Positions 27,109 through 50,303 of a stretch of 64,000 bases of DNA are shown here, piece after piece (position 1 is the first letter of the stretch; every line of letters starts with the position of its first letter). Position numbers and translations under genes: made by a program. Under the pieces are notes generated by a model that was given only the letters and a program-made list of their open reading frames with translations, made no database searches and had not been told where the DNA came from. The DNA is from an uncultured Gemmataceae bacterium (GTDB lineage: Bacteria > Planctomycetota > Planctomycetia > Gemmatales > Gemmataceae): the NCBI GenBank assembly GCA_963750165.1, contig CAVVPN010000011.1, positions 960,001 to 1,024,000 on the forward strand, given 5' to 3'.

Positions 27109-27918
27109 TCACGGTGCGGACAGCACTCCCGTCTGGATCATGCGGTTGAAGTGCCTTTCGACCTGCTCGGGGAGGCCCCCGCCTTTGACCAGCAGACCAA
27201 GCTCCATGTTCAGCGTGAAGGCGTACTCCGTCAAGTTGGCGCTCGACAGGAACAGCCAGCGGCCATCGGCCACGGCGCACTTGACGTGCAGGATGCCCGC
27301 CTTGCCGCTCTCGCCCCGCGCCCGCTGCTCCAGCGGCCAGAGGTATACGCCGCACCGGCTGGCGACGGACGGGCCGAGTGCCGCGAGTGTGCTGTAGGCG
27401 TTCTGACCCTCGATTCGGTCGGGGCTTTCCACGACGATGTTGATTGCAACACCTCGGTTCGCGGCCTGCACCAAGGCATCACAGACGCGAGGGATGTTGT
27501 AGACGGCGTAGCTGACGACCAACAGCCGTGCTGTCGCTGATTCGATGACCTGAAGTATGGCTTGTTCCGTGCGCCGCACCGGCACTACGCCAACATCAGG
27601 GCCGGTCCAGACCAGTTCGACCGATTGGTGTTCGCTGTGCGCCTTTGCCATCGAAGAAGCGGTCAAGAGGGCGGTGGCGACCGCTTGGGCCGACACGTCG
27701 GCTGCATGTTCCCTCCATCCGTCGAGGAAGGCGACGACGAGGCTACGGTAGTGAGCATGGGCAAGGTCGCGCACCGCACTGGCGCGGCACGTCGCCCAGT
27801 CCCCCACAGCGACCGGGACGAGGGCCTCGGCGACCGCTTCCGCCACGGACCACGGCAACTTCTTGACCAGTAACGTCGCTTGATCGGAGACGAAGCGAAA
27901 GCCGCTGCTAAACGTCAT
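27109..27918 (-). CDS. drmC: DISARM phospholipase D-like nuclease DrmC
   Basis: ELVWTGP, LLVVSYAVY, LHVKCAVAD (HxK...D), SSANLT and NMELG; downstream of drmAB. Confidence 0.92.
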   Translation of the reverse strand: MTFSSGFRFVSDQATLLVKKLPWSVAEAVAEALVPVAVGDWATCRASAVRDLAHAHYRSLVVAFLDGWREHAADVSAQAVATALLTASSMAKAHSEHQSVELVWTGPDVGVVPVRRTEQAILQVIESATARLLVVSYAVYNIPRVCDALVQAANRGVAINIVVESPDRIEGQNAYSTLAALGPSVASRCGVYLWPLEQRARGESGKAGILHVKCAVADGRWLFLSSANLTEYAFTLNMELGLLVKGGGLPEQVERHFNRMIQTGVLSAP

Positions 27919-30019
27919 GGCGAGTCCCCTTTACCCGGCAAAAAGGGACTCGGCGCGCCCCACGAGGTTACGACCAGCAGGTCGCGGGCTCGGGTTGCCG
28001 CGACAAAGAGCAAAGAGCGTTCGCGGTCCACATGCTCGGCCCATGCAGCGGCGTCACTCTCGGCAGCGGGCACGCGCAAGGGCAGGACCGAGGCGTTGGC
28101 CCCTGCGAGGATCATGACGGGGAATTCGAGCCCCTTGACGCGGTGCATTGTCGCCAGACGGACGCCTTGGCCTTCGCGGGTTTTTTCTAAGCAGCGCATC
28201 TGATCCCCAGATCGCTCAAGATCGGCTGGTAGTCTTCCTTCAGCATCTTGTTCGTGCGGGCGACGAGACAGACCTCCTCTGGATGCCGGTCGCCGATGAG
28301 TTCTTTGATCCGCTGGCCGAGGAATTGTCGCTCGTCATTTTTCGAGCCAAAGAGGCGCACTTCGGGGACAGGTCCAGACAACAGCGACTTGTACCCCTGT
28401 TCCTCGTCGCGCTCGCCGTCGAGGTCGTCGGTTTCGACGCCTTTGAGCATTGCCATCGCCCACGCCCTGATCTCTTCGGTGGTCCGGTAGTTGATCCTCA
28501 ACTTGCTGGACCGCCCCTGCACGTTGATGCCGCAGCCTCGAAGTGTCACTTTCTGGCCGTAGATGCGCTGGTGCGCATCTCCCACGATGAACAGGTCATT
28601 CGCGCCGGGAGCAGCGATGGCTCGGATCAGTTTCCACTCATCGGCGTGGAAATCCTGCGCCTCGTCCACGATGACGGCCCGGTAAGGGAGGCGGGGCTTC
28701 TTCTCTTCAAGAAAACGGTGTGTTTGCTGAATGACGCTTTTCCACTCGGTCTTGCCAAGGTTGCGTAGGCCCAGACGGAACTTCTCGAACACCTTCCAGA
28801 CACGGCTGCGATGAGGGCGGCTGAGCGTCTGGCCTCGCCCAATGCGAGGCACTTTCAGGTAGTCGGCTTCCGCCTCGATGTCGTTGGCCTGCACCACCCG
28901 TTCCCATTCTTGCCGCAGAAATCCGATGTCATAGCCGAGGTCTTCCGCTGCGAGCAGGGCGTCCTCCCAGCAGCGGTCGAGGTCGTCTGGGCTGGCAATG
29001 TCGAACGCGAGTCCTTGGTCCTTCATGAAACGAATGGCCCAAGCATGTAGATGCAGGATCTCGATCTTCTTCCTCTGGTCGCCGCACAGACTGTCGAGGT
29101 TGTGCCCGACGTTCTGAGCAAGGTTCGCCGTGTAGGTCGTGAAGAGTACCTTGTCGTCTGCCCCCGTACAGAGGGAATTTGCCAGATGCCGAGCCCTGTG
29201 CATCGCCACGACCGTCTTGCCCGTGCCTGCGCCGCCCGTCACGCGGGCTGGGCCGTTGAACGCCTTCGCCACCAGCCGCTCTTGGCTGGGATGGAGGAAC
29301 ACTCGCCACTTCTCCAGTGGGGCGTTGAGGATCGAAGTCAGGTCTTCGTCGGTCTGGATGGTCACGAATCGGCGGCGAGAGTCGGGATGCTGGAGCGCCG
29401 CCGCGAGGTCGGCGGCATCTACCTTCTCCTTCGCTGTCTGGACTGCTACTGCCTCGCGTACTTCGTCCGGTGGCAGTCCCTCGGCCAGCCACGTCAGGGC
29501 CTCGGCGGCTTCCGCAGGAAGGTGCTTCGTGAGCGACAAAAGCTCATCTGGCTTTGCGACGGCCCGCACCGAAGGCAGAAGGACGGCGGGCACTCCAAAA
29601 GAAAGGAGAAGTTCGTCGTCGAACTGCGCCAATATGCCCGCCCGTTTCTTCCCGTTCACGGTCGGCTGGATCGCTTCGGTTGCCTCACTGACGCTGACGA
29701 CTTGAAGTGATCCTGTCCGTGGATTGACCTCGAAGACCCGGTTTTCAGTCCACGCCATCGCCTCATCATGGTTATCTACCCACATGAGGACGTAGACATC
29801 GCCCTGCTCAGGATGGAGAACGACGGCCCGGTACTTCTGGTCGATCCGAACGGTGCGGACCTTCGGATCTTTGGAGGCGTGGATCTTCTCGTAGTGGATC
29901 GCGGCTGATTTGGGATCGGCCTTGAACTTCTCGGTGAAGTCGCGCACTTTCTTCTGCTGCGCACGAGGTATGCGGGCGAAGGCGTCGAGGAACTCAGAGG
30001 AAATGGCGACAGTGGGCAT
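27915..30019 (-). CDS. UvrD-like SF1 helicase with N-terminal RelE/ParE-like domain; frameshift near 28190
   Basis: FLHPSQ, GGAGTGKT, VDEAQD, GDAHQRIY and NYRTT; C-terminal ATMHRVKGLEF and LLFVAATRAR are in the next frame (27915-28199). Confidence 0.85.
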
Positions 30020-30025
30020 GGGCAG

Positions 30026-32263
30026 TTACACCCCCAGTAATTCTCGCAGTTTGCCTTCCTTGCCGGTAAGATCCGTGGCATCGAGTACCTTCCAGCCCTG
30101 TTTCTCGAAGGCTGGGTGGGCGTCCGCTCCCTCTGGTAGCACAGCCGCGACCTTCTGCGTCGGCCACGCCAGTTCTGCCTGAGCACAGACCCGCCCGTCC
30201 TCCTGAAGCTCGAAGCCGACGACTGGAAGAGGCAGTTTCTTCCCCGCCCATGAGCGAACGAACTCCTTACACCGCTCGTCGCAAAAGTCCACCAGTTCGT
30301 CGGTCGCGCTCAACGCGGTTTTCACGGGCAGGACAGAACTGGCCGATTCTTCGGTATGGGCGGTGATTTCTCCTTTCGGCATCGCTTCGGCGAAATCCTT
30401 GAAGAAAGCCAGATCCGCTGACTCGACAGTGGAGACCAGCACCGAACGGTCGAGATACTTGTTCCCGCGCTCGCACGAGGTCTCTGGCAGGAAGAGGCAA
30501 GCGTGGCAAGCCGCTCCGTGCAACGTCAGGCTGTCCCTGTAAGGGTGGTGCTCGGCACAGAGAGGGTCAGAAGTGCAGAGCCGCATCGCCTCCAACGCCT
30601 GATCCAGATGCCGACCGAGTGACTTCGGTTCCCCCAGACTGACGAGCCCACCGAGCGTGCCTTCGCTGTCGGGAGCGGCAGTGTAAAGGAGAACTCCCGC
30701 CATCGGATCGTGGTCTCCTCCCGGTGGCCGGGAATAAATGCGTTCACGGATGCTGGCTGTCGTGTAACCGCACTCCAGCGAGAACTGCCGAATCAGGGCG
30801 TGGGCCAGCGAGTGCAGCAGCACATAGCGCATCGTCGGGTAGTCCGCGTCTGGGTGCGGATGCCCACGGTTCATGCGCCAGCGCCGGTGGGATTCGCGGA
30901 ACTCCTTATCGCGGTCAGTGGTCTTCTTGATCCATGCTTCGATGGCCTTCTCCGAGAATTGCAGGAAGACGCCCTCGCCACGTACTTCTGAAGTCGGAAC
31001 CCACTTGGGGGCAGAGCGGCCCAAGGGGACGCGCTGTTCCTCGGGCAAGCTGCCGAGTTCGGTGTAATCACCGGGAGACTCGATACGGGTGAAGGCGATC
31101 AGCGACCGCACCTCCCGCAGACGCTCAGCCAGCACAACTTTCTCCACCACGTTCTTGTACTGCTTCGGGGCCTCGACGACGCGAAGCCGAAAGTCGCGGC
31201 TGTTCAGCTTCGGGTCGGGGTTAGAGAGTACCTCCCACTCGGGGTCGCGGAGGTCGCGGGCCTCCTCGTCCTCCTCACCCGTACTGGATTTTTTCTTGGA
31301 GACCGCCTGCCAGATTTCGTCCTCGGTGAAAGTCGCCAGCCCCTTCAAGAGCTTGCGCTTCAGTTTGACCTCGCGGGCGCTCTCGCACTCCTCAAGTTCG
31401 GCCCAGTTCATCTCGATCAACTGGCCGAGCTTGTCCGTGGTGGACGGGATCGACAGTGCCGACAGCATCACCGGGAACCAGCTATTCGACGCACCGAGCA
31501 AAATGGCACGTTGCTTCCCTTGGCACGCATTTTCGTCGAATTTGCGCAGGTGCGGCCAGCGGCCTTTGCACTGGTGCAACTCGATCTTGCCTTCTTCGCT
31601 GAAGGCATCGCTCATGCGACGAGTCGTCGGTTTCTCCTTCGTCCCACATTTCACACATTCCACCTGAATGTCGGCCACCTCGCCGGATGCGCCCAGTTCA
31701 TACAGACGCAATTCATAGCGGCAGTCGGTCTTGCCTCGATGCACGAACTGGACCCAAGGAAAATCGTCAAGGTGGCCCTGTTCGCAGGCGATGAGGAAGC
31801 GAGCGGGAACGGCGGTTGGCGGCTTGCCCGGCTTCTTGCAAATGCGGTGAACATAGCGGCTGCGGTCCTTGCGGTAGGGGTCGAGACGAAGCTCGAAAAG
31901 CCCCGACTGGATGGGGGCCAACAGGCGGCAGTACGGACACAGCAGCCAGCGGGGAAAGGGCGCAACCGGGACGCCGATGTTGGCCGAGTCGTCAAACGGG
32001 TTGGCCTGATACCCTGTCGAGTCGCTGGTCACGGGTGGCGTGAGCAGCTTGACCACTTGCCTTCCCAACTCCTGCTGCACCGCCTTGAGGAGCCGAGGTT
32101 CGGTGATCTCGCTGGACCCTTGTTCGATGGGCCAGTCGTCCAATCCCATTACCATCACCGACAGATTGGGCAATTCGACCATCGCCCCGACACCATAGGT
32201 GAAGAGGAGTTGGCTGGGGCGGATGTCGCCTACTTTCCGCTTGTCCGTGGCGAGGTTACTCAT
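30026..32263 (-). CDS. drmB: DISARM DUF1998 protein DrmB
   Basis: IRPSQLLFTYGVGA, LLHSLAHALIR, SEGTLGGL and CTSDPLC...AACHAC..LPETSCE.GN..LDR; overlaps the drmA stop. Confidence 0.93.
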   Translation of the reverse strand: MSNLATDKRKVGDIRPSQLLFTYGVGAMVELPNLSVMVMGLDDWPIEQGSSEITEPRLLKAVQQELGRQVVKLLTPPVTSDSTGYQANPFDDSANIGVPVAPFPRWLLCPYCRLLAPIQSGLFELRLDPYRKDRSRYVHRICKKPGKPPTAVPARFLIACEQGHLDDFPWVQFVHRGKTDCRYELRLYELGASGEVADIQVECVKCGTKEKPTTRRMSDAFSEEGKIELHQCKGRWPHLRKFDENACQGKQRAILLGASNSWFPVMLSALSIPSTTDKLGQLIEMNWAELEECESAREVKLKRKLLKGLATFTEDEIWQAVSKKKSSTGEEDEEARDLRDPEWEVLSNPDPKLNSRDFRLRVVEAPKQYKNVVEKVVLAERLREVRSLIAFTRIESPGDYTELGSLPEEQRVPLGRSAPKWVPTSEVRGEGVFLQFSEKAIEAWIKKTTDRDKEFRESHRRWRMNRGHPHPDADYPTMRYVLLHSLAHALIRQFSLECGYTTASIRERIYSRPPGGDHDPMAGVLLYTAAPDSEGTLGGLVSLGEPKSLGRHLDQALEAMRLCTSDPLCAEHHPYRDSLTLHGAACHACLFLPETSCERGNKYLDRSVLVSTVESADLAFFKDFAEAMPKGEITAHTEESASSVLPVKTALSATDELVDFCDERCKEFVRSWAGKKLPLPVVGFELQEDGRVCAQAELAWPTQKVAAVLPEGADAHPAFEKQGWKVLDATDLTGKEGKLRELLGV

Positions 32264-35200
32264 GACGCTTCTTCCTCCTCGCCACCCTCAGTGTCTTCGC
32301 TGACCGACGTTACAAAGGTAGGATCGCCGTCCAATCCGCCGTCGTGGAAGATCAGCCCGACTGTCGGCTCCACGTCTCGTAGCGAGTTGAGGCAAGTGAA
32401 ATCATCCCACGGATCGAGGGCGGGGCGATGTAGCAAGCCCACTGTCACACCGTCACGTTCCTCGTCGTAGCCCAACACTCGCCCGCCAGCGGTCTTTTGA
32501 GCTTCGGCGAGCCATTGGTCGAGCCGCTCGTTCAACTCGGTTTTCAGGTTCTTGATGAAGTCGTCGTCGCTGTTGCCGACCAGTTCGGCCCGCCGCAGGA
32601 TCGTCTTAACGGCCTCCTGCACATACGGATGGTTGCGGTCGATGCGGGCGGCTTTCTTATTCGAGTTGAACTCGGTCCCTTGCAGTCGCACGCACGAGAT
32701 CAAGAGCGCCGTCAACCCACGGCTCAAGGCTCCCAAGGCGAACGGAGTCACCGACAGTGCCTCGACGTGCTTGTAGAACGTAGCGTGGTAGTGCTCGAAA
32801 GTCTCATAGTGCGACAGGTCGCGGGGCCGCGTCCAGTTGTAGACCGTGAAGACCAGACCGGGGAACTTGCGTCCGACCCGGCTGGTGGCCTGAATGTATT
32901 CTGCTGTCGTCTTCGGCTGACCTGCCACTACCATGAGGCCGAGTCGCTGCACGTCCACGCCTACCGAGACCATGTTGGTCGCCAGCAGCACATCGAGCGG
33001 GCGTCTCGGCATCTCATGGATGCGCCCCTTTTTCTTCAACTCTTCGCGTTTAGCTTCGATCAGGGGGTTGAATTCCGCTTCAAGGTGGTCGAGCACTTGG
33101 GGAATGTCCGTCGAATCCTTGCGGGATGTCAGTTCGTCCACCATGTAGAGCGACCGCCTCGACAGACCACGCTGGTCCATTTTTCCCAACCGGGTCTTCA
33201 CGTCGTCATCCACCAGCCGTCGCATTCCGGCGAGTTCCCGCATTGAGTTGAAGTAGCCGATGAGGGTCATCCACGAGTCGGCATCCTTGCCGTAGCCCTT
33301 CTTTTCGTAGAGCGTCTGGGCGGCGGAAAGCAGGGCGAGATACACCCGGATCAGAGAAACCTTGAGTCGGCGACCGGGGGCGCAAATGCCGATGTAGCGG
33401 CGACCGGGAAGTTCCTCACTCGGCTTTCGTTGGAGGGCGAAGAAATTGTCTCGCACGTCCAAGGCGTAGGGTGGGAAGACGTTGACCTTGCGCAGAAAGG
33501 TCGCGTGGATCTGATCCCCGGCCTTGCGGATCGTCGCGGTCGAGGCAATGACCTTGGGCCGCACGGTCTTGCCGTTCACCTCCCACGAACACAGTTTGTC
33601 CACCGCCGTCTCGTATAAGCCGACGAGCGTACCCAGCGGCCCGGAGATCAAGTGCAACTCGTCCTGAATGATGAGGTCCGGTGGCCGCAGTAACGGGTGC
33701 TGTTTTGTCTTGGTGGCTGGCAGTTTGCCCTTCTTGACGTGCGACTCGCCACAGGTCAGTTCTGGAGAACAATAACCGTGGCGGTCACAATAGGCTTCAA
33801 CCTGTCCGAAAAGCATCTGGACCTTGCCGTTCCACGGCATCTGGGCGAACTTGTCCACGGTGGCGATGAGCAACGTCGGCAGGCGGCGGTAGATCTCTTC
33901 ATCGACCACAAGTACCGGAATGCCTTCCAGCGGCGACTGCTTGCCGCTGAAAGGGCAACGGCCCAGCACGTCGCCGCAGAACGAGACCGTGCGGCTACGG
34001 CCCTTCGCGTAGGTTTCCACCTTGATGTGCAGACCAACATTGATCTTGGCACCGCACCAAGGACAGTTAGTCAATTGAGCCGGGGAGCCGCTTCCTTTTC
34101 CCTTGAACTTGCCGCCATGCTCCTGCTGGATTGCTTCCGCCGCCCCATCAGTCGTGTTCGGCGTCGTCTTCTGACCAACCCAGAGGCCGATGCGGAACGG
34201 CTCCTTGCCCCATTTCTTCTCGTCGCCGCGCCGAATGACCTCGCAGGCGCAGACAAGGGCCGTCGCCCGCTGGAACTGTTGGATCGTCAGAAGCCGCAGC
34301 GTGTAGCGCATTAGCACGGCCACACCCTGTTCGCCCGAGCGACCCGCTACGCTCCCTTGGAGCCGTCGCAGGGCCATCGTATACGCCGACAGGCCAAGGT
34401 AGGCTTCGGTCTTGCCGCCGCCTGTAGGGAACCACAATAGGTCGGCTACCGCATTCTCTTCGCCGATTCGATCTACGTGGTCGAACTTGGTGATGCCGGG
34501 AAGGTTCAACAGAATGAACGCCAACTGAAATGGATACCACGAGCGGTTGCGAGGCTCGTCGATGGTCTTGAGGTCGGCCTCTTCGTCCCGCCGCCGCTTT
34601 TGCGAGTAGATGGTGTGGACGCGCTGCTGCCACATGGCCTGATTGGCAAACCGGAAGGCTTCCGCCGCCTTCTCGTCCTCTTGCAGTAGTTTGAGACCGG
34701 CTTCGATCCGCTTCAGGGCATTCTTGCAGAGTTCGAGCGCCGTTTGGCCCGGCTTCTGGTAGAGGGCCATGTCCGGTTTCGTGAGGTCAGCCTCCCGCTC
34801 CTTGATCCATGCCGCATACGCCGTTACCAGCGGACGCAGCTTCTTGTCCAACTCGGCGGTCGGCGTCTCGCCCAACTCCTTCATGTCCACTGCCAGCCCG
34901 GCCAGCTTGGGCAAGTCGGCTCCGGTCGGCGGGGTGGTGCGCGGGACTTCGTAGGTCGGCACCACCTTGGTCGAGATGCGGAAGGCCCGGTCGCAGACGC
35001 CTTCGGGACAGTCAACGTGTATGCTCACGCCATGTCCTACGCCGAACTCGACGTGCTGGCGGTAAAGCATTGCCATCTCCTGTTCCTCGGCAAAAGTGAC
35101 CGGATCGCTCTTACCGGGGTCGCGCTGCTGGGGGCGGCTGTGCAACACTGGCTTGCTATCAGGCGACTGGACGCTCAATTCCGGCTGGAAGATCCACGCC

Positions 35201-35790
35201 ATATCCCGCAACTTCTTCGGCTCCTGCTGGCCGTTGACCAAGAAGAGCGTGATGGTCCAGAAGTGGTCGCGCTTGCGGAGAAGCCCCTGTACCTCGACTT
35301 CGGGAAATTCATTGTCCGGCGTCCAGTTCAGCCTGCCTACCTTCAACGGGATCGGCTCCGATACTCCTCCTCGCGGGCTCCGTTTCCAGACCACCTTCTT
35401 CTCGCCCTTGGTTGTCGTGAGGGTGGCGCTGCGGTCGCGGTGATAGTGGCCCCAGCGTGCAGTAAGTTGAAGTTCCTTGGCGTCCAGATCGACGCAGAAC
35501 GTCATCCCGAAGGAAGACGGAAACATCGTCTTCGTCGAGGGGGCAGTGGCTTCGGTGGAGCCGTCCTCAGCGGCCCCACTGCCCCCTTGAGGCAATTCGT
35601 CGAATTCCTCGGGAGAAAGCTCCTGCCGCTTGGGGGCGAGCATCCCGACAAGATAGCGGTCGCGCACGCTGGGCTCGTCGATCTCTTCGTCCTGCCCGCC
35701 GACCGGCCCGAGGAGGTCGTTCAGGACCATCTGCTCCAGTTCGTCCCGAATCTTCATCGAGGACGGGATGCTTTGCAGGAGGTTGCTCAT
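32260..35790 (-). CDS. drmA: DISARM SF2 helicase DrmA
   Basis: LLWFPTGGGKTEAY, MRYTLRLLT.QQFQRA, IIQDELHLISGPLG, LATNMVSVGVD and YIQATSRVGR. Confidence 0.95.
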   Translation of the reverse strand: MSNLLQSIPSSMKIRDELEQMVLNDLLGPVGGQDEEIDEPSVRDRYLVGMLAPKRQELSPEEFDELPQGGSGAAEDGSTEATAPSTKTMFPSSFGMTFCVDLDAKELQLTARWGHYHRDRSATLTTTKGEKKVVWKRSPRGGVSEPIPLKVGRLNWTPDNEFPEVEVQGLLRKRDHFWTITLFLVNGQQEPKKLRDMAWIFQPELSVQSPDSKPVLHSRPQQRDPGKSDPVTFAEEQEMAMLYRQHVEFGVGHGVSIHVDCPEGVCDRAFRISTKVVPTYEVPRTTPPTGADLPKLAGLAVDMKELGETPTAELDKKLRPLVTAYAAWIKEREADLTKPDMALYQKPGQTALELCKNALKRIEAGLKLLQEDEKAAEAFRFANQAMWQQRVHTIYSQKRRRDEEADLKTIDEPRNRSWYPFQLAFILLNLPGITKFDHVDRIGEENAVADLLWFPTGGGKTEAYLGLSAYTMALRRLQGSVAGRSGEQGVAVLMRYTLRLLTIQQFQRATALVCACEVIRRGDEKKWGKEPFRIGLWVGQKTTPNTTDGAAEAIQQEHGGKFKGKGSGSPAQLTNCPWCGAKINVGLHIKVETYAKGRSRTVSFCGDVLGRCPFSGKQSPLEGIPVLVVDEEIYRRLPTLLIATVDKFAQMPWNGKVQMLFGQVEAYCDRHGYCSPELTCGESHVKKGKLPATKTKQHPLLRPPDLIIQDELHLISGPLGTLVGLYETAVDKLCSWEVNGKTVRPKVIASTATIRKAGDQIHATFLRKVNVFPPYALDVRDNFFALQRKPSEELPGRRYIGICAPGRRLKVSLIRVYLALLSAAQTLYEKKGYGKDADSWMTLIGYFNSMRELAGMRRLVDDDVKTRLGKMDQRGLSRRSLYMVDELTSRKDSTDIPQVLDHLEAEFNPLIEAKREELKKKGRIHEMPRRPLDVLLATNMVSVGVDVQRLGLMVVAGQPKTTAEYIQATSRVGRKFPGLVFTVYNWTRPRDLSHYETFEHYHATFYKHVEALSVTPFALGALSRGLTALLISCVRLQGTEFNSNKKAARIDRNHPYVQEAVKTILRRAELVGNSDDDFIKNLKTELNERLDQWLAEAQKTAGGRVLGYDEERDGVTVGLLHRPALDPWDDFTCLNSLRDVEPTVGLIFHDGGLDGDPTFVTSVSEDTEGGEEEEAS

Positions 35791-35915
35791 AAACCGTGTC
35801 CCAAGTTGTTCACTTCATGCAGGTAACGCCGATTCGCCGGGCCGATATTCCGCAGGCGAACCAGAGACAGCATAGCCGGTGTCTTGACAAAATGCAACAA
35901 GAATTCAAGTTTCGA

Positions 35916-35944
35916 TTGACTTTGTAAACCTCTGGGCTGATAAT
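35916..35944 (+). promoter_or_regulatory. Sigma70-like promoter for the QueC-like cassette
   Basis: TTGACT (35916-35921), 17-bp spacer, GATAAT (35939-35944), in the AT-rich divergent intergenic region. Confidence 0.6.
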
Positions 35945-35994
35945 GTTCCTAGACGGAGCAGGACGCTTAGCCGAACCTCGGAGCGAACACCAAC

Positions 35995-36573
35995 ATGGCT
36001 GAGAACGAATCGCTGGACCTCGGCTCTTCTTACGCGAAACGCTGGGACGCCGCTTTCACCGCCGCCCAAAACGGCGACCCCTGCGAAAAGGTCGCCCCCA
36101 AGGTCAGCAAGGCGCTGTATGACGGGGTGCGGAAAGCGCTCAAGCAATTTCAGGAGCACGGCATCACCCTCTCCGACTTGCTGGACGCCCGCGACTCGCG
36201 GCAACGGCTTCGCCAGTTGATCCGCCAGATCGGGGGCCACCAGTACGCCCAGCTTTTTGAGTCCGCCGCTCACGCGAGCGGCCCCACCGCCAAGGACTGT
36301 GTACAGGGGTGGGTCGAAGCGATCCTCGACAAAGTGTTCGACCAGATCTGCCTCCGAATCACCGAGACGGACGAATCGCGCACCTTTTTCGATCTCAAGG
36401 AGCTTGCCGACACCGTGCGCGATGCTGTCGCGGGTGACGTGGAGCACCTCGCCACCACACTTGCCAACAACCCCGACTGGCGACCGCAGCGAAAATCGGG
36501 GAAAGCCAAGTCCGCAGACGCCACCAGTCCCACGGAAGAACTGATGGGCATGTCGCTACTGGGAGGCAAGTAA
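35995..36573 (+). CDS. Hypothetical helical protein (possible remote QatB-like partner of QueC)
   Basis: 192 aa; stop is 2 nt before the QueC-like ATG; predicted all-helical by residue pattern. Confidence 0.7.
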   Translation: MAENESLDLGSSYAKRWDAAFTAAQNGDPCEKVAPKVSKALYDGVRKALKQFQEHGITLSDLLDARDSRQRLRQLIRQIGGHQYAQLFESAAHASGPTAKDCVQGWVEAILDKVFDQICLRITETDESRTFFDLKELADTVRDAVAGDVEHLATTLANNPDWRPQRKSGKAKSADATSPTEELMGMSLLGGK

Positions 36574-36575
36574 CC

Positions 36576-37988
36576 ATGATAACCCAGCGGTTCCCGTTCA
36601 CCACGTCTTTCTGGGTACGTCCCCAGAACAACGTCATCGAACTCCGCGCGGGCAAGCACTTCCGGTTTGACCTCGACGCCGTGAACACCTTCTGCCTCGG
36701 GGACTTGCCCGCCCGGCTCGTGGACTTCCTGCGGATCTCTTCGGCGTTCTACGTCGTGGACCGTCTCGTGAAGCGCCGACCCACGGGCGGCGTGAGGAAA
36801 CCCTCTCGCACCATCGGCCTGAAGGTCGGGGTGCTGGACGCCGGGTTCTGGGGCCAGCGCGAGGTCCGTGACGCGATCCTAGACACCGTGGAGTTCGTTA
36901 GCAGCGACTTCTGGGACATCGAGTTCCTTCAAGACACGTCGCCGTTCTGCCGGACTGACCGCTTCTTGCCCGACCCGTATGAGGGGATGTCGCCGCTCGT
37001 CTGCTTGTACAGCGGCGGTCTCGATTCCGCCGCAGGTCTGGTGGCCCGCATGGTCGAGTGTCCCGGCAGGCCGGTGCTGCCTGTCACGATTTGGCATCAG
37101 CCCCGGCAGCGTCACCTCGTCCGCGAGCAGTTGAAACTCCTTGGCGGTCGGTTCGACGTTCCGGTCGATCCGCTGATAGTCAAGGTGGCGATGATGTGGA
37201 AGTCGCTCCTCGACCGGGATCTGGAGGAGAACACCCAGCGCTGCCGCTGTTTCCAGTTCGCCTCGATAGGCGCGATTGCAGCCATCATGCACGGCCAGCG
37301 GATCGTGGAGGTCTTCGAGTCCGGCATCGGGGCCATCAACCTACCCCTGATGGCCGGGATGGTCGGCGCGATGACGACCAAGAGCGCCCATCCGAAGTTC
37401 CTGCGCTTGATGTCCCACCTCGCCAGCCTCGTCGCTGATGGCGAGGTCGAGTTCCGCCTGCCGTTCTTCGACCGGACGAAGGGTGAGGTGGTCCGCACGA
37501 TGGCCGAGGCGGGGTTGGAGGAACTGGCCCGCCAAACGGCATCCTGTGTGCATTACCCACTTCGGCATTCGCAGCAGAAGCAGTGCGGCGTCTGCCCGGC
37601 CTGCGTCTTCCGGCGACAGGCGATGACGGTTGCCGGAATCACGGAGCCTGACGACACGTACAAGTACGACTTCATGGGTTCGTCGGGCGGGACGGCTCGG
37701 ATTCCGTCTAAAGGACTCCTTTACCTTAAGGCATTCTTGATGCAGGTGGCGTCACTGAAGGACGCCTGCGCCGGGAAGTCCCTCCCTCGCTCCGTCGCCC
37801 GCCACCTCGTCAGCACCGAGGTTCTGGCTGACGGATGCCCGCGAGAGGCAGTGACCGCCCTGCTTGCCCGCTACCGGGACGAGTGGATGGACATCGCCTC
37901 GGACGGATACCGGAAAGGGTTGGCGTGGTCGCGGCTCCTCGCCGCGCCACGACTACAGAAACAAGGAGTGACCCATGCCTCAGTCTGA
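36576..37988 (+). CDS. QueC-family (QatC-like) PP-loop ATPase
   Basis: LYSGGLDS PP-loop, TKGEVV and zinc site SCVH...QCGVCPACVFRR; 470 aa with an N-terminal extension, longer than housekeeping QueC. Confidence 0.88.
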   Translation: MITQRFPFTTSFWVRPQNNVIELRAGKHFRFDLDAVNTFCLGDLPARLVDFLRISSAFYVVDRLVKRRPTGGVRKPSRTIGLKVGVLDAGFWGQREVRDAILDTVEFVSSDFWDIEFLQDTSPFCRTDRFLPDPYEGMSPLVCLYSGGLDSAAGLVARMVECPGRPVLPVTIWHQPRQRHLVREQLKLLGGRFDVPVDPLIVKVAMMWKSLLDRDLEENTQRCRCFQFASIGAIAAIMHGQRIVEVFESGIGAINLPLMAGMVGAMTTKSAHPKFLRLMSHLASLVADGEVEFRLPFFDRTKGEVVRTMAEAGLEELARQTASCVHYPLRHSQQKQCGVCPACVFRRQAMTVAGITEPDDTYKYDFMGSSGGTARIPSKGLLYLKAFLMQVASLKDACAGKSLPRSVARHLVSTEVLADGCPREAVTALLARYRDEWMDIASDGYRKGLAWSRLLAAPRLQKQGVTHASV

Positions 37989-39195
37989 CACGCTCGATCC
38001 CCGCATTGTGGGCCAGCGGATCACCGAGGCTCGCAAAGCCCGTGGCAAGACGCAGGAGGAAGTCGCCGATTTTTTGGGGTGTAGTCGTCCTACCTACATC
38101 GCCATCGAGAAGGGCGACCGTCTCGCCAAGTCGGAAGAGATCATCAAGCTCGCCTCCTTCTTGGGTCGCAAGGTCCACGAACTCGTGCGCCCCACCGAGC
38201 CAGTCGTGGACCTCCAGCCACATCTCCGCGCCGCCGTCGAGAAGATGAAGGGGGCGGACGAGGCAGTGCTCAACGCTGCTATTGACGAACTTCAGCGACT
38301 CGCCGAAGACTACCGGGACTTGGAGAAGTTGATGAACGCGCCATTGCGCTTCAACTATCCCCCGGAGGTCACGCTGAGCCCACGGATCGACCCGGCTGAA
38401 CTGGCCGAGGGCGTGGCTCTTCAGGAGAGGCAGCGGCTCGGACTGGGCGACCAGCCTGTGATCTACTTGCGCAACACGTTGGAGTGGGATGTCGGCCTGC
38501 GGATCTTCTACTGGAGCTTGCCCTCACCCATCGCTGGGATGTACGCCTACACGGCGGACCTCGGCTGTTGCATCCTCGTCAATCGCAAGCACCCGCCCGA
38601 GCGGAGGCGAGTCTCGATGCTGCACGAGTACGGTCATTTGATCGTGGACCGCTACAAGCCCGGCATCGACTACCTGTCGATGACCGGACGCAAGCCTGCT
38701 AACGAGCGTTTCGCGGAGTCGTTCGCGCTGAGTTTCCTGATGCCGACGAGTTCCGTGCGGCAGCGGTTCCACGACATCGTGACGACGACCGGCAACTTTC
38801 GAGTGGCCGACCTGCGACGATTGAGTCATTTTTACTACGTCTCGATGGAGGCGATGGCTCTGCGGTTGGAGCAGTTGGGACTCATTCAAAAGGGAAGCTC
38901 GCAGTTCTTGAAGGAGTCGAAGTTCTCACCACGTGAGGCGGCGGAACTGCTGTGCTTGCAGCCACAGCCGGTGAACGACTTCCCGTTCCCCGACCGCTAC
39001 AAGTATCTCGCCGTTGCCGCCTACGAGCGAGGAGAGATCGGCGACGGCGACCTCGCGCATTACCTGCGGTGTGACATCGTGACGGCCCGAGAAATCGCGT
39101 CGGCGACCCTGACTAGCCGAGAGATGGAGCCCACCGGCGAGGCGAGCGCGTGGCGGCTCGACTTCGCCAAATCGCTACTCAGTACAACCCCCTGA
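37975..39195 (+). CDS. XRE HTH + ImmA/IrrE zinc metallopeptidase
   Basis: RKARGKTQEEVADFLGCSRPTYIAIEKG; RRVSMLHEYGH (HExxH); ERFAESFALSFLMP. Confidence 0.92.
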   Translation: MPQSDTLDPRIVGQRITEARKARGKTQEEVADFLGCSRPTYIAIEKGDRLAKSEEIIKLASFLGRKVHELVRPTEPVVDLQPHLRAAVEKMKGADEAVLNAAIDELQRLAEDYRDLEKLMNAPLRFNYPPEVTLSPRIDPAELAEGVALQERQRLGLGDQPVIYLRNTLEWDVGLRIFYWSLPSPIAGMYAYTADLGCCILVNRKHPPERRRVSMLHEYGHLIVDRYKPGIDYLSMTGRKPANERFAESFALSFLMPTSSVRQRFHDIVTTTGNFRVADLRRLSHFYYVSMEAMALRLEQLGLIQKGSSQFLKESKFSPREAAELLCLQPQPVNDFPFPDRYKYLAVAAYERGEIGDGDLAHYLRCDIVTAREIASATLTSREMEPTGEASAWRLDFAKSLLSTTP

Positions 39196-39212
39196 TCCGA
39201 CAAGGATTCGTC

Positions 39213-39767
39213 ATGTCTCAAGCAGCCATTGACGCCTGCTGCATGTTCGACCTATTGGCTTCGGGACAGGCCGAGGCCATCCTTCGAGCCAGTGGCTTCA
39301 CATGGCAGTTGCCCTCTGCCGTGCAGGGTGAGGTTCAGTACCTTCGTCAACACGACCCGGCGCAACCGGGGAAGTTTGTGAAGGTTCCTGCCGACCTTTC
39401 GGGCGTGATTTCCTCCGGGGTCTTGACCGTTTGCTCCCCGGAGAACCAACAGGAGTTGGACCGCTACACCCACTATGCCACAGTGTTTCGTTCGGACGGC
39501 GAGTCGATGTGTCTGGCGCTTGCCGAGAGGCGGGGGTGGGTCGTCGCAACGGATGATCGAAAAGCGATTCGGGTCGCCCAGCAGGCGGGCCTGACGGTGG
39601 TATCCTGCCCCCAACTGATCAAGGCGTGGGCCGACGCGACTGCACCGGATCAAACCGTGCTGATCAAGGTCTTGCAAGACATTCAGGTACTCGCCCAATT
39701 CAAGCCGAATCCTTCCATGCCCGAGTACAAATGGTGGGTCGATGAGCTTGCAAAAAGCAGTCCGTAA
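39213..39767 (+). CDS. PIN-domain nuclease (putative toxin)
   Basis: AIDAC, V..EV, DGE..CLALA and VATDD.KA acidic PIN motifs. Confidence 0.8.
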   Translation: MSQAAIDACCMFDLLASGQAEAILRASGFTWQLPSAVQGEVQYLRQHDPAQPGKFVKVPADLSGVISSGVLTVCSPENQQELDRYTHYATVFRSDGESMCLALAERRGWVVATDDRKAIRVAQQAGLTVVSCPQLIKAWADATAPDQTVLIKVLQDIQVLAQFKPNPSMPEYKWWVDELAKSSP

Positions 39768-39885
39768 TAGGCGCAGGTCGAGGCTCGTCGAAACTTCTCT
39801 TTCCGCGAATCCACGGAGCCAAGAAATCGACCAGCACCATTTGTTCTAACCCTTCCTGACTCATCATCGGGATGGGATCGCGGTC

Positions 39886-42306: not shown

Positions 42307-45300
42307 CTATTCCTCCCTCCAGATCACGCTGCCTTCGTAGCCAAGGACGCCGTGGCGGATCGCGCTGTTGATGGCCGACTTGATGGCGTCCCGGCTAGTG
42401 TCGGTGACGCGAGCGAAACCAAGGTAGCGGGCAAGGGCGTGGATTACATCCTCGCGCTCATAGTTGGTCCCCTTCCGCATCACGGAGCGGAACGTCTCCC
42501 TCAGTTCGTCGAGGCCGTAGTCGGCCATCGTGCCGGTCCCAGCCCGCACCAAGCTGGCCCCGTCCGCCTCAATGATCCGGCGACGAATCGCCGCTCGCAG
42601 GTGCCCCCGCAGCGTCTCGTCAATCTTGGGACCGAGCCGCTGGAAACCGAGAGTCAGCGACACATCTTTCAACAGTTCATCCCGCTCCAGCCAACCCCGC
42701 CCTCGTGTCGCTTGGCGGAAAGCCGCCATGATGGTGTCCGCGTCGATCAGGTCGATGGAAACGGGCCGATTCGTGGGCTCGGCCTCGCTCTCGGGTTCAA
42801 GTTGATCGTCGTCTTTGGGCTCAGGGTCTTCTTCGTTGCCCTCATCGAACAGCGACTTGCCGCCCGCTGGAGGCGACGATTTCCGCCCGCGCCCACTCGA
42901 CGGCTTCTTGCCCTTCCCCTTCTTCTCGTGGAGCCCCTGCTTGACTTCCTCGGCGTATCGCTCGTGATTGAGCCTCAGTAGGCGGGCGAGAATCTCGTGC
43001 CGTGCCGGTTCGCTGATCGTGTTGCGACCACCTTGCTTCGTTTCATGGAATCCGTGGCCGAGGTTGAGATCATGCCAACCGTATGTAGCGACGACGGCAT
43101 TGTCCATTTGGGCGTGCAAGGCGCGTAGTTCTTCCACGTCGCGTGCCTTCTCCTCAGAATCATGAAGACGGTTGTATACCTTGGTAAGCCCTTCTTGTCG
43201 AGCAGTCATGATTTGCTGCCGCGCCAAGAGATACTCGTCCCCGATCTTGCGCAAGCCCTGAACGTCCAGAGGAAACGGAAACGTCTCGCAGCAATCGCTT
43301 GGCGAGTAGTTGAGACGGGATTCCAGTGACGATGAGTAGGCCCTTGCCCAAGGCTCGTGGACGTTCGATTGAAGTACGGAGAAGTCACCAGAATCGCTCG
43401 AAGGAAACACGCCAAGCCGATGAGCGAATACCTGAGCCGCTGGGACCAGCGCGATAGCAACGTGATGGGTCACAAGAGAGACAGCAAAGACTTTGCGCAG
43501 CTTCTTCTCACGAATCGCGGAATACAGTTCAATCGCCTTTCGACCAAATTGCCACCAGAACTTCGCGTACCCTTTGGCTGAGGCATCGTTCTTGAGTCCA
43601 AGCCGATCCCTCTCGGGCTTGACCTTGGCGCGCACAACTTCCAAACATGCTGGATAGTCGGAGGCCACTGGTCCTCGGTAGTCGCTCGCGGCTGACTTTC
43701 GGTCGAGCGGCCAGTCAAAGAAGTTTATCACCCACCGGGTCGCTGACTGATCGACTTGGGAATTTAGGTCTTCTCCGTTTAGATAGGGAAACAGAACCTC
43801 GCTGTTACGCTCGTTCTGCTTCAGAAGTTCGTGAGCTTCCTCTTGGCTCACGACAAAGCCTATCCCAACGATGTTCGAGCCCTGAAAGCAACGGCCACGA
43901 TTCGCACTCAAGCGTGAAGGTGGACCGCCGACCACGTTAGAAGTAGTCAGGAAAGGAGTGATACCGGGAACGTGCGTCTCATCAAGAACGAACGGGCCAC
44001 TCCATTGTCCGAGCCGGACCCAGACATGGGCCACTTCAAGATTCGCAGTTCCGGGCCACTTACGACTCGGCACTGCACGCGGTACGGTACAGCCAGAGGC
44101 GACCAACGACTCCAGTGATACTTCCCGCGTATCGCCCTGTGCAATGGTGTTGGTGGCAAGGAATCCAAACTGACCGTTTTCCCGAAGCAGGGTCTTGGCT
44201 CGAAGGAAGAAGTAGGCACAGAGATCGGCGCTGCCCTTCTTATTGTTCGCCAAGTGTTCCACAAGGTAGTTTCGGTAGGCTGTACCAAGGACTCCCGTGA
44301 TCTTTTTGCCGCCCATGAACGGCGGATTGCAGACGAAGGCGTCGAAGCCACCCCGGTCCACCAGCACCTCGGGAAACTCCAGCGGCCAGTGGAATGTCGG
44401 ATTGCCGCGCATGCCCTTTCTCGCCGCCGCGCTGAACTCCTCCACAGTTCCTTTCTCGACGTAGTATCCCGCCTGTATCGCCATGCTGTTGTGGAGCCGC
44501 TCTTTCCCCTCGGGAGCCTCTTGAAACTCGACCGATAGCAGCAGATCAGCGGCGCAGCGGAGTCGGGCGGTCTTCGCTTCGACCTCAGCAAGCAACTTCT
44601 CCTTGGCCTGCACATCCTCGACCGTGTTCGCAGGAGCCGCTTCGATCTTCTTCCGCAGGGCGATGGCGTCGTCCACCCAGTCTTCGAGCGGCCCCTTGAA
44701 TTTCAGCGTACCCGGCTGGTCCGCCTCCAAATGGAAGTTCTTGAGTTGTCCGAGGTCTTTGATCCCCACCAGCGAGTCGCCGGTGCGGATCGCGTGGTCG
44801 AGGAAGGTGAACGGCTTGTCTTTGGCAACCGTCAGTAGCCAGAGGGACAGCTTCGCCATTTCCACCGCGAGGTGGTTCTTGTCCACGCCGTACAGGCAGC
44901 GCTGGGCGACAATGCGGTGGGCGAACGCAAGCCGCTCGTTCGTGTCCGTGGGAATGGGTTGCTCCGAGGGCACCCCCTTCGATGGCTCCCCGTAAGGGGT
45001 GATGCGCGTCCCCTCGGGGTACTTCTCCTCGCGCTCCATCCATGCTTCGACCAGCCGTTGCGACAGATAGCGGCACGCCTGCACCAAGAAGGCTCCTGAT
45101 CCACACGCCATATCGCAAATTTTGAGGTCAAGCAGTTCCTTCGCCGACCGCAGATTCCACTCATCTTCGGGCTTGCCCTCGGCGGGGCCGACATACACAA
45201 GCGGCTCCAATGTGTAGCGGACGATGGGTTCGGTCAGTTCAGGAGGCGTGTAGTGCGTTCCGCTGGAGCGTCGGTCAGTCCCCTCCGTGACGAAGATGCT

Positions 45301-46953
45301 CCCGGTGCGAACGACCACGGGCCTATCGAACGTGTCGTTCCGCAGCAGGCCAGAGAAGCGAAGCACTCGCTGGAAGAGCTTCTCCTCGTTGCCACAAGTT
45401 GCCCGCAGTTTCTTGGCGTCCTCCCCTTCGAGCGGGGTGTCCAGTCCGCGATTGAGCGTCTTCTCCTGCCTGCCCGTCTGGTCGTTCAGGAACGCGATAA
45501 GGTCGGACTCGCCCTTGTCTTTCAGCCGCTCTACTGCGGCAAGGGCTACTTCCGTTTCCTTGCCTTTCGCACCGAGCAGGCCGAGCATCGGTTCGGCGGC
45601 GCGCTTCGCAGTGTGGTCGAGGAGTCCCTCGTAGACGTGGCCGATCTGTTCGATGCCGAGTGATTGGAAGCTCAGCCGAACAGCGAGGTCTTCCTTGCGC
45701 TCCCCTTGCAAGTATTGCAGAGAGCGCAGCAGGTGCAGCACCGTGCGATTGTTCACAGGCAGCGGTGTGGCCGGGGTATCCCGCCACATCGTCCCCGACT
45801 TACGGCCTTCGAGGAACGGGAAGCGGTCAGGGTTGAAGAGGTTGCCTCCGTAGGCGGGCAGTTTCATACGCTCGTGCTGGACGCCGCCGAACACGGCCCG
45901 AAAGATGGCGAGCAGCCGCGTGTAGGCATCGAGACGGCGTTCGAGAACCTCTTCGCCATGCTGGTCGGCGGCTTCTTGAAGCTGATCGAGGATCGTCGAG
46001 ACGGCGTAGTGCTGCAAGTACAGTTCGTCGTCCGTCTGTGCCGGGATCAGCTTGTTTTCCTCCGCGTAGAAGAGGAACACGAGCCGCATCATGACCGTGA
46101 GGGCGGCTTCGTAGAGTACAGCCTCGGACACCTCGCGCAAGAGTTTCCGTTCGTGGTCCTGATCGGCCCGGTCGAGCGACTGGATGAGTACCGCGACCGC
46201 CTGACGCACTTGAAGTCCCAACTGGTCGGTGACTTCCTTTTGGTGCGTGACGCTCTCGACCAACATCGCTTCTAACGTGTCGAGGTCGGCGACGGAGAAG
46301 AAGCGGCTGACGCCCAAGAGGCTGCGGAACGCCCGGAGTGTCAGCGGTTCGTCGAACCACAGGGTCGCGTACCACGAGGCGAAGCCCGCCGTGCGATCCC
46401 GTGGGGCATCGACGAGCATCCAGTGTTCGCCGTTGGTAACGAGACCGAGGCGGACATCCGTGGCGCGTAGGAGGTCCGCCATCCGGCTCGCGGGAGACGC
46501 ATTCCAGTGCCGTCCCACGATTGGCCTCTCCAAGTCCTGCTGAGACGGGTGGATCTGGACCAGCAGGCGGGGTTTACCAGTATTCGGCACTCCCTCCGGG
46601 TTGCGGACGAGGACATCGGGACGCAGCACCTCGCCGTGAAGGGCGATGTTCGCCTTGAGCGTCTGCGGGATGTCCTGCCCCTCGGCCATCACCTCGTCGG
46701 GTAGGCCGAGAGTCTGCTTGAGCACGAAGTCGATCCACGCCTTGTGAATGGCAGGATTGGGTCGGTGGCTGCTCTCGTTGTCATCCCACTCGTCATACGC
46801 CAGCCGCAAGTGACGGGCGTGCGCCTTCGCCTCGGGCGAGTCGTCCTTGTCGAGCCCCTGCGGGAAGACGCGCTCCAGCACCGGCAGCGTGAGGAACGGC
46901 CCAGCGACCTCGATCAGCGATAGCCATTCGGCGTGATGGCGTGATGCGGCCAT
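42307..46953 (-). CDS. drmMI: DISARM class I adenine methyltransferase DrmMI (Eco57I/type IIG-like)
   Basis: IGHVYEGLL, GTHYTP, DMACGSGAFL, LYGVD, FHWPLEFPEV and CNPPF; follows drmD. Confidence 0.9.
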   Translation of the reverse strand: MAASRHHAEWLSLIEVAGPFLTLPVLERVFPQGLDKDDSPEAKAHARHLRLAYDEWDDNESSHRPNPAIHKAWIDFVLKQTLGLPDEVMAEGQDIPQTLKANIALHGEVLRPDVLVRNPEGVPNTGKPRLLVQIHPSQQDLERPIVGRHWNASPASRMADLLRATDVRLGLVTNGEHWMLVDAPRDRTAGFASWYATLWFDEPLTLRAFRSLLGVSRFFSVADLDTLEAMLVESVTHQKEVTDQLGLQVRQAVAVLIQSLDRADQDHERKLLREVSEAVLYEAALTVMMRLVFLFYAEENKLIPAQTDDELYLQHYAVSTILDQLQEAADQHGEEVLERRLDAYTRLLAIFRAVFGGVQHERMKLPAYGGNLFNPDRFPFLEGRKSGTMWRDTPATPLPVNNRTVLHLLRSLQYLQGERKEDLAVRLSFQSLGIEQIGHVYEGLLDHTAKRAAEPMLGLLGAKGKETEVALAAVERLKDKGESDLIAFLNDQTGRQEKTLNRGLDTPLEGEDAKKLRATCGNEEKLFQRVLRFSGLLRNDTFDRPVVVRTGSIFVTEGTDRRSSGTHYTPPELTEPIVRYTLEPLVYVGPAEGKPEDEWNLRSAKELLDLKICDMACGSGAFLVQACRYLSQRLVEAWMEREEKYPEGTRITPYGEPSKGVPSEQPIPTDTNERLAFAHRIVAQRCLYGVDKNHLAVEMAKLSLWLLTVAKDKPFTFLDHAIRTGDSLVGIKDLGQLKNFHLEADQPGTLKFKGPLEDWVDDAIALRKKIEAAPANTVEDVQAKEKLLAEVEAKTARLRCAADLLLSVEFQEAPEGKERLHNSMAIQAGYYVEKGTVEEFSAAARKGMRGNPTFHWPLEFPEVLVDRGGFDAFVCNPPFMGGKKITGVLGTAYRNYLVEHLANNKKGSADLCAYFFLRAKTLLRENGQFGFLATNTIAQGDTREVSLESLVASGCTVPRAVPSRKWPGTANLEVAHVWVRLGQWSGPFVLDETHVPGITPFLTTSNVVGGPPSRLSANRGRCFQGSNIVGIGFVVSQEEAHELLKQNERNSEVLFPYLNGEDLNSQVDQSATRWVINFFDWPLDRKSAASDYRGPVASDYPACLEVVRAKVKPERDRLGLKNDASAKGYAKFWWQFGRKAIELYSAIREKKLRKVFAVSLVTHHVAIALVPAAQVFAHRLGVFPSSDSGDFSVLQSNVHEPWARAYSSSLESRLNYSPSDCCETFPFPLDVQGLRKIGDEYLLARQQIMTARQEGLTKVYNRLHDSEEKARDVEELRALHAQMDNAVVATYGWHDLNLGHGFHETKQGGRNTISEPARHEILARLLRLNHERYAEEVKQGLHEKKGKGKKPSSGRGRKSSPPAGGKSLFDEGNEEDPEPKDDDQLEPESEAEPTNRPVSIDLIDADTIMAAFRQATRGRGWLERDELLKDVSLTLGFQRLGPKIDETLRGHLRAAIRRRIIEADGASLVRAGTGTMADYGLDELRETFRSVMRKGTNYEREDVIHALARYLGFARVTDTSRDAIKSAINSAIRHGVLGYEGSVIWREE

Positions 46954-46967
46954 TGTCCCTACACCTC

Positions 46968-50171: not shown

Positions 50172-50303
50172 GGAATCCTCGTAACGAGCGGCCTCCGTTG
50201 CCCGACCCGGTGATGTCCGACGACCGGCATCTTTGTGGTTGAACTCCAACGACAACTAGCTTATCCTTACGGTATGACGCCTGCAAGCAGGAACCGACAC
50301 AAA

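Follow-up and report, generated by a model that had tools for sequence, protein, structure and literature searches.

Why do four small genes lie inside a DISARM defence locus, and do they act together? The window, by which we mean the whole analysed stretch of 64,000 nucleotides (nt) from an uncultured Gemmataceae bacterium (assembly GCA_963750165.1, contig CAVVPN010000011.1, positions 960,001 to 1,024,000), contains a class I DISARM locus on the minus strand, in the order drmD, methylase, CBS gene, SNF2-like gene, drmA, drmB, split UvrD and drmC. Between the SNF2-like gene and drmA are four tightly packed open reading frames (ORFs) on the plus strand, at 35995-39767, here called genes A, B, C and D, each found in a single copy in the genome. 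A encodes a helical protein, B a QatC-like enzyme, C a helix-turn-helix (HTH) protein fused to a zinc peptidase, and D a PIN-domain protein (Table 1). Gene B starts 2 nt past the stop of A, and C overlaps B by 14 nt; for D, the start at ATG 39213 (184 amino acids, aa) suits the family alignment better than GTG 39150. An earlier note, made from the sequence alone, had described the close coupling of the four genes, the promoter TTGACT-17-GATAAT and the inverted position between the drmMI block and drmA. The ORFs, their spacing and the promoter were confirmed, and NCBIfam and Pfam assignments of the flanking genes agree with that position. Scans with NCBIfam, Pfam and PADLOC found no QatA, QatD or CD-NTase within the cassette, as the same note had stated. 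In the reading we favour, with a probability of roughly 0.42, the four genes form one anti-phage abortive-infection pathway, in which B modifies A, and C keeps the operon repressed and the PIN RNase D in check until infection.

That the four genes make up one conserved operon is close to certain. Relatives were collected by similarity to B and comprised 83 loci, some of them near-duplicates; three came from genomes, and the other 80 were the best of 239 found in metagenomes. Synteny was counted solely in loci with enough flank. A was found upstream of B in 65/66 loci, C downstream in 62/63 and D in all 52, and 41 of the 42 testable loci had all four genes in the same order. The exceptions were L040 and L003, the latter a broken copy. 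The reverse search, starting from C, gave 25 closest plasmid records, all with a QueC gene or partner adjacent; the plasmid records fetched carried the four genes in 11/11 cases, one with a split B, and three weaker C matches that were fetched were without B. The co-occurrence of the two gene pairs as a unit, which had been proposed from the window alone, is thus a general property of these loci. The nearest named relatives of the cassette are labelled Planctomycetota, Gemmatales, and two viral contigs carry it. Among 401 genomes of the phylum we found 20 long QatC-like genes, of which 3 were of the four-gene kind, 10 belonged to QatABCD and 7 to a two-gene kind.

A sister four-gene type (L088-L090, L094-L098, L204-L206, L112) was found mainly on alphaproteobacterial plasmids, with the same gene order. 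In this type the partner begins, in most cases, with M[S/T]DGP and has [L/V]D[Q/D]G[V/P]xL as its end; in profile comparison it matches A at 89.7% over 143 columns. The L090 partner is annotated with Arg at position 2, which Met removal would not expose. One viral contig, L134, has a four-gene locus with a 231-aa upstream ORF matching none of the partner profiles. The two-gene kind (L105-L111, e.g., L108:561-3450 and L111:793-3632, 7/401 genomes) pairs a partner of ~260 aa, whose start is mostly MGHxRL, with a QueC-fold enzyme that is extended at its C-terminus and has its own tree branch. The extension in L111 is a DpnII/MboI-type nuclease domain. In addition, the qatC at L100:3848-5977 is 710 codons long, is not followed by a separate qatD and may encode a QatC-QatD fusion.

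The promoter is the sole promoter-like site in 35600-40000. Since 0.6 such sites are expected in shuffled sequence, its support comes from conservation in relatives. The -35 box lies within a 13-bp palindrome, TT[GT]AC-N3-GT[AC]AA. Among 57 upstream regions of gene A, each of 130 nt, 48 had it exactly and all 57 with at most one mismatch, and shuffles gave 0.065 and 0.855, respectively. The exact palindrome was found 49 times in 410 kb of cassette loci, and is thus almost confined to the upstream site. With one mismatch allowed, 7/12 upstream regions of the sister type matched it, as did none of 12 regions ahead of qatA or of MGH-type partners; L134 gave no match. As C is the only HTH protein of the operon and its SRP recognition residues are invariant, we infer that it represses its own operon, with its HTH as the likely ligand of the palindrome. 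No promoter-like site was found between B and C, and C starts inside the end of B, so the C/D pair should be co-transcribed with A and B. The four genes are therefore likely one autoregulated operon. A weaker second half-site, TTGACA/TTTACA, lies ~30 nt upstream of the operator (window 35884-35897) and recurs in many relatives.

Gene B matches Pfam QueC. It scores 150 bits with the NCBIfam QatC model, under the cut-off of 280, and 30.8 bits with the canonical QueC model TIGR00364, which has a cut-off of 150; canonical QueC is ~220 aa long, B 470 aa. By profile, the only solved relatives are the QatC chains 9zee and 9vlk (1e-37). The motif set of QatC comprises D(x)4R..W, DxWxxxF, SGGxDS, RxRxxxF, ExG, HP, P(x)4TK and four Cys (PMC13329287; this and the other publications are cited from the parts available). 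In B the corresponding residues D62, R67, W92, D111, W113, F117, S146-S151, R222, R224, F228, E248, H272, P273, P296, T301, K302, C324, C337, C340 and C343 are each present in 75-77 of 77 rows, which bears out the earlier assignment of B to the QatC kind. In a quick tree of 58 enzymes each kind fell on its own branch, B being apart from the 17 QatC rows with supports of 95 and 99 in the approximate likelihood ratio test (SH-aLRT); the L134 enzyme was a long unplaced branch.

What B attaches is less clear. In QueC and Cap9 a Tyr/Asp pair binds 7-carboxy-7-deazaguanine, and QatC has two Thr there (PMC13279940). B has T268 (Thr in 76/77) and S270 (Ser, Gly or Asn in the family) at these positions, and judged from this sequence difference deazaguanine is a doubtful donor. 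It may be available to the enzyme, since the genome has a separate canonical queC (contig C3) and two QueD/PTPS-family genes. For QatBCD of E. coli a low level of deazaguanine-modified QatB peptide was detected (PMC13639016), and the QatC substrate was left unresolved in two studies (PMC13279940, PMC13376578). A second short QueC-like gene, on genome contig C4:851768-852352, scores under the canonical cut-off and could be Cap9-like or another paralogue.

The family of gene A comprises 488 clusters at 50% identity, with identities down to ~20%. The model of A is all-helical, with a predicted local distance difference test (pLDDT) value of 87 and disorder past residue 170. No NCBIfam or PADLOC family name could be given to A, and Pfam yielded solely a sub-threshold match. 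The N-terminus, M-[A/P]-E-N-E, is strongly conserved: E5 in 90/90, N4 in 88/90 and E3 in 87/90 rows, with residue 2 being Ala in 81 and Pro in 5. Among 141 representatives with starts as called in the database, 104 begin MAENE, 10 MPENE, 4 M-[E/D]-N-E and one MAEDE, 10 have the motif after an extension, and 12 are without it. That Met is removed ahead of Ala or Pro is well established in general. QatB models from NCBIfam and PADLOC matched true QatBs but not A, and comparison of A with 16 QatB profiles in HHalign gave 4.2%; QatB was not listed in the Foldseek or VIA results for A, from libraries in which the presence of QatB was not established.

A is predicted to bind B, in keeping with the modification of the partner by the QueC-like enzyme that the earlier note had proposed. 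When B was modelled together with A(2-192), ATP and Zn, the complex reached a score of 0.86, compared to 0.30 for the best control, with at least 77% of contacts agreeing between runs and a partner pLDDT of at least 80. The score mark was reached by 116/157 solved and 2/215 mismatched pairs, counts which hold roughly at best for this job. On the side of A the predicted interface includes residues 2-9 and the helical body, and on the side of B residues 146/148, 219-225, 258-270, 323-325 and 340-342 together with the C-terminal extension. In the model, residues 2-9 meet the P-loop and RxR region of B, and the body of A packs on the 258-270 loop and the extension, the same surfaces that QatC uses for QatB (PMC13279940, PMC13376578). 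The N-terminus of A is thereby predicted to sit in the active site of B.

This placement bears on the earlier, speculative proposal that the peptidase might have to expose the acceptor. The conserved motif begins at residue 2 (Ala/Pro), which ordinary Met removal exposes, and the model puts this end at the active site, so no peptidase is needed. It is very improbable that the peptidase cuts near the N-terminus of A to give a glycine acceptor for deazaguanylation. In favour of such a cut, A does not start with MG as QatB and CdnD do, and many close relatives (53/90) have G10. Against it, conservation in A is highest at residues 2-5 and lacking at G10, residues 2-9 are those modelled in the active site, and the four representatives called as M-[E/D]-N-E keep the register if Met is retained. 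Two other candidates were rejected. A 664-aa A-B "fusion" (P0040) was not used, as the tail sequence of A is lost at the junction, which looks like a frameshift. A role of A through a ubiquitin-like C-terminal Gly-Gly was discarded, since the second Gly is present in 16/90 rows and the codons overlap the GGAGG ribosome site for B.

Gene C matches Pfam HTH_3 and Peptidase_M78, and the catalytic residues H217, E218, H221 and E244 are invariant in 50/50 rows. Its closest folds are CapP and IrrE, the best match being CapP 7t5t over 175 columns of C (template modelling score 0.29 by query), and PADLOC RmrA models match it with values up to 4e-22. Gene D alone gave no Pfam match; the PIN family was recognized in 16/46 of its family members, D7, E40, E97 and D114 are invariant, and D95 and D115 are kept in at least 90%. 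No match to RmrT models was obtained. The earlier identification of C as an HTH-ImmA/IrrE-type peptidase and of D as a PIN nuclease therefore stands, and D is likely an RNase toxin. A stand-alone HTH-peptidase/PIN pair at L207:458-5269 is divergent from three genes resembling, by eye, ubiquitin-like, JAB and E1/ThiF proteins.

Both A and C end in hydrophobic-x-x-S-L-L after a low-confidence linker, with varied codons and 0-14 unconserved residues past the tail. The pattern was present in 42/60 A and 46/50 C, compared to 2/61 B, 0/47 D, 0/19 stand-alone relatives of C and 49 of 4,876 genome ORFs (1.0%). Distance correlations over 32 complete loci, in which kin are not independent, were 0.79 for A-B, 0.77 for A-C and 0.75 for B-C, and 0.41, 0.43 and 0.56 for C-D, A-D and B-D, respectively. 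Together, the shared tail and the distances point to a link between A and C, as far as sequences can tell. A sliding-clamp reading of SLL was rejected, Gln two residues before Ser being rare in A and found in 7/50 C.

The same tail on two proteins, with its few unconserved residues beyond, would also suit a protein ligase. C would then trim the SLL tails of A and of itself, and B would adenylate the freed carboxylate and join it to the N-terminal amine of A, so that A is cyclised or chained, or the repressor C is tied up. The absence of the base-binding pair from B and the unresolved first substrate of QatC are compatible with this scheme. The modified QatB peptide, even at its low level, the lack of an SLL tail in the sister type and the purely hypothetical cleavage of the tail make it quite improbable.

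In the pathway we favour, B would hold the N-terminus of A in its active site and modify it. Met1 of A would be removed and the amine of Ala2 acylated with an adenylated carboxylate. C would bind the operator and neutralise D, and A, by means of the shared tail, would take the site normally held by the tail of C itself, thereby coupling the state of A-B to C. Repression would then be lifted and D released, leading to RNA cleavage and abortion of the infection. In loci where drmA is divergent from the cassette, C may extend its control to the restriction half of DISARM. We arrive at a single pathway because of the synteny, the predicted complex, the operator in 57/57 regions, the shared tail, and the C distances tracking those of A (0.77) and B (0.75). 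It is also argued for by other QatC-clade types carrying nucleases (TatD, or the DpnII-type domain fused in L111), and by QatABCD, where QatB bridges QatC and the nuclease QatD (PMC13639016).

Several observations weigh against a single pathway. The tail pattern was defined after A and C had been seen, and the sister type is without it in both A (0/9) and C (0/10), so coupling through the tail is not universal. The C-D correlation of 0.41 is weaker than expected of a tight toxin-antitoxin pair, although D is short and divergent and the kin are not independent. The score of the A-B complex may partly come from likeness to solved QatBC complexes. Some phages are countered by QatBC alone (PMC13279940), so A-B may do without C and D. 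C+D pairs without A and B exist and are common, and a COG2856-Xre fusion with PIN has been predicted to be a toxin-antitoxin module by itself (PMC2701414). Finally, L029 and L036 have C 80-85% but B only 40-41% identical to the window. In L029, drmA (88%), C (85%) and D (74%) are close to the window and A (34%) and B (41%) distant, with both SLL tails kept, so the cassette halves can be exchanged in place.

The next most likely reading, though still a rather unlikely one, is two independent defence modules under one switch. A-B would defend in the manner of QatBC, C would be a CapH-CapP-like fusion which lifts the repression of the operon, and of the divergent drmABC, upon DNA damage, D would be a back-up toxin, and the tail would have another use. 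Besides the sufficiency of QatBC, the common stand-alone C+D pairs, one of them (L207) divergent from a ubiquitin-like operon by eye, and the module exchange in L029 and L036, it gains from CapH-CapP fusions with a vapC-like gene that are divergent from some DISARM operons (10.1101/2022.04.27.489752). On the other hand, the C subfamily scoring better than 1e-78 always adjoins B in the loci examined, C has the SLL tail solely where A has one too, and the distances of C are closer in pattern to those of A and B than to those of D.

The defence context is mixed. Of the 52 loci whose flanks reach at least 1 kb, 10 have DISARM genes beside them (12 when all loci are counted), so the location inside DISARM, pointed out in the earlier note, is recurrent but not obligatory. 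In nine related DISARM loci drmA is divergent, with the operator 114-265 nt from the drmA start. Of 31 non-DISARM loci, in each of which up to four neighbours were scanned, a mere five adjoined restriction- or defence-type genes and two an integrase or transposase, and several lay amid housekeeping genes, which again counts against the favoured reading. Plasmid copies have Shedu, AbiE and a methylase as neighbours. DISARM in 10/52 loci and these plasmid neighbours speak for the favoured reading. A role of the cassette in defence is quite probable. The patchy spread (3/401 genomes of the phylum), the plasmid copies and the many copies amid housekeeping genes would also fit an addiction or stress module of mobile DNA, where C and D stabilise the element and A-B tunes both. 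We consider this unlikely, as the closest characterised relatives of B are anti-phage (PMC13279940) and the place inside DISARM and beside restriction genes is recurrent.

Among known systems, the closest are QatABCD and QatBC. The cassette shares with them a long QueC-fold enzyme with QatC motifs, encoded directly after a helical partner and followed by a nuclease gene, and a conserved partner N-terminus which enters the active site (PMC13279940, PMC13376578, PMC13639016), as is predicted for A. It differs in several respects. It is without QatA and QatD, C and D filling the downstream place in 62/63 and 52/52 loci; the N-terminus of A reads M-[A/P]-E-N-E where QatB has MGTS, and the first helix of A comes after ~10 residues, not after a tail of 30-90 residues; B is under the QatC cut-off and on a separate branch; and an HTH-peptidase, a PIN gene and an operator are added. 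Type IV of the cyclic oligonucleotide-based antiphage signalling system (CBASS) is similar in that the QueC-fold enzyme Cap9 acts on the N-terminus of its partner CdnD (PMC13279940, PMC13329287). Unlike it, the cassette is without Cap10 and CD-NTase (none of the four genes matched the latter in Pfam or PADLOC), and B has 470 aa, compared to ~185 in Cap9, and is without the base-binding Tyr/Asp pair.

The downstream half resembles COG2856-Xre fusions with PIN, and RosmerTA, which uses an antitoxin similar to C (PMC10440598, 10.1101/2022.05.11.491447): C is an Xre-M78 fusion with HExxH, and the PIN gene comes directly after it. In contrast to those pairs, C-D here makes up the 3' half of an operon of four genes, whose operator is found upstream of A, and C bears a C-terminal extension ending in SLL, which stand-alone relatives are without. 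CapH/CapP is comparable as an HTH and M78 peptidase divergent from DISARM genes, and C matches CapP best in fold; for the ssDNA-stimulated cleavage of the HTH repressor that marks CapH/CapP, the likeness of C is one of fold. Nocardia DISARM is adjoined by a CapH-CapP fusion with vapC, with no QueC or partner described there in the available part of that report (10.1101/2022.04.27.489752); the accessible text of PMC8649781 does not mention QueC or Qat. Targeted full-text literature searches, with subscription journals mostly and supplements wholly outside their reach, found no description of the four-gene combination, which defence-candidate tables may hold under other names; PADLOC likewise gave no matching system, in line with the novelty claimed earlier. 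The name "DdaTA" found no support in the literature searches and was dropped. The cassette is best read as a QatBC-like modification core joined to a COG2856/PIN module, and stands outside QatABCD by its partner, its flanks and its enzyme clade.

The coordinates of all features are collected in Table 1. In the surrounding DISARM locus drmA, drmB, drmC and drmD are all above the NCBIfam cut-offs, and the methylase at the drmMI position is Eco57I-type. The UvrD-like helicase between drmB and drmC (window 27915-30019, minus strand) is frameshifted near 28190 into parts of 610 and 94 aa, which is either decay or an assembly error. At 39886-42232 on the minus strand, a CBS-domain ORF and an SNF2-like ORF overlap each other by ~490 nt. 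Both are absent in the close relative L002, where the methylase comes directly after gene D, so they look like a later insertion. The same contig has two more DISARM-like drmD/drmA/drmB sets, at contig positions ~948800-962100 and 1536700-1551700, of which the former begins just upstream of the window and overlaps its start.

Table 1. Features of the four-gene cassette and the DISARM genes around it; positions are those of the window.
Feature	Position	Strand	Basis or remark
Sigma-70-type promoter of the operon, TTGACT-17-GATAAT	35916..35944	+	Similar -35/-10 spacing in relatives
Palindromic operator-like site TTGACTTTGTAAA, overlapping the -35 box	35916..35928	+	Conserved upstream of gene A
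Gene A, 192 aa, all-helical partner	35995..36573	+	QatB analogue, not detectably QatB
Gene A N-terminal segment, residues 2-9 AENESLDL, predicted acceptor	35998..36021	+	Conservation and predicted interface with B
Gene A C-terminal hydrophobic-x-x-SLL motif, M184-L189	36544..36561	+	42/60 loci; synonymous codon variation
Gene B, 470 aa, QatC-clade QueC-fold ATP-dependent ligase; SGGLDS, four Zn cysteines	36576..37988	+	
Gene C, 406 aa, Xre HTH fused to M78 (ImmA/IrrE/CapP-like) zinc peptidase	37975..39195	+	Pfam, catalytic residues, fold
Gene C C-terminal hydrophobic-x-x-SLL motif, F397-L402	39163..39180	+	46/50 loci
Gene D, 184 aa, PIN-domain protein, likely RNase toxin	39213..39767	+	Pfam PIN in family members; conserved acidic residues
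DISARM drmA, drmB, split UvrD, drmC; divergent from the cassette, possibly co-regulated	27109..35790	-	NCBIfam
DISARM drmD and methylase at the drmMI position	42307..50255	-	NCBIfam / Pfam

For QatC-type enzymes, what is attached to the partner and how the phage is stopped is an open question in three structure papers from 2026. In the cassette the partner has another predicted acceptor, Ala or Pro in place of Gly, and a downstream read-out is at hand in the form of a PIN RNase and an operator-controlled promoter; its sister form has cultured, plasmid-bearing hosts, among them Pannonibacter, Labrenzia and Methylocystis. If the protein-ligase scheme were true, the cassette would be a conjugation switch without ubiquitin-like parts, which disables the repressor C and frees the RNase D, and would point to a protein as one possible form of the first substrate that is missing for QatC-type enzymes. 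The enzymes fall into four branches or more, and each branch goes with a partner N-terminus of its own, MGTS, MAENE, M[S/T]DGP or MGHxRL; the QatBC principle is therefore a wider family than QatABCD.

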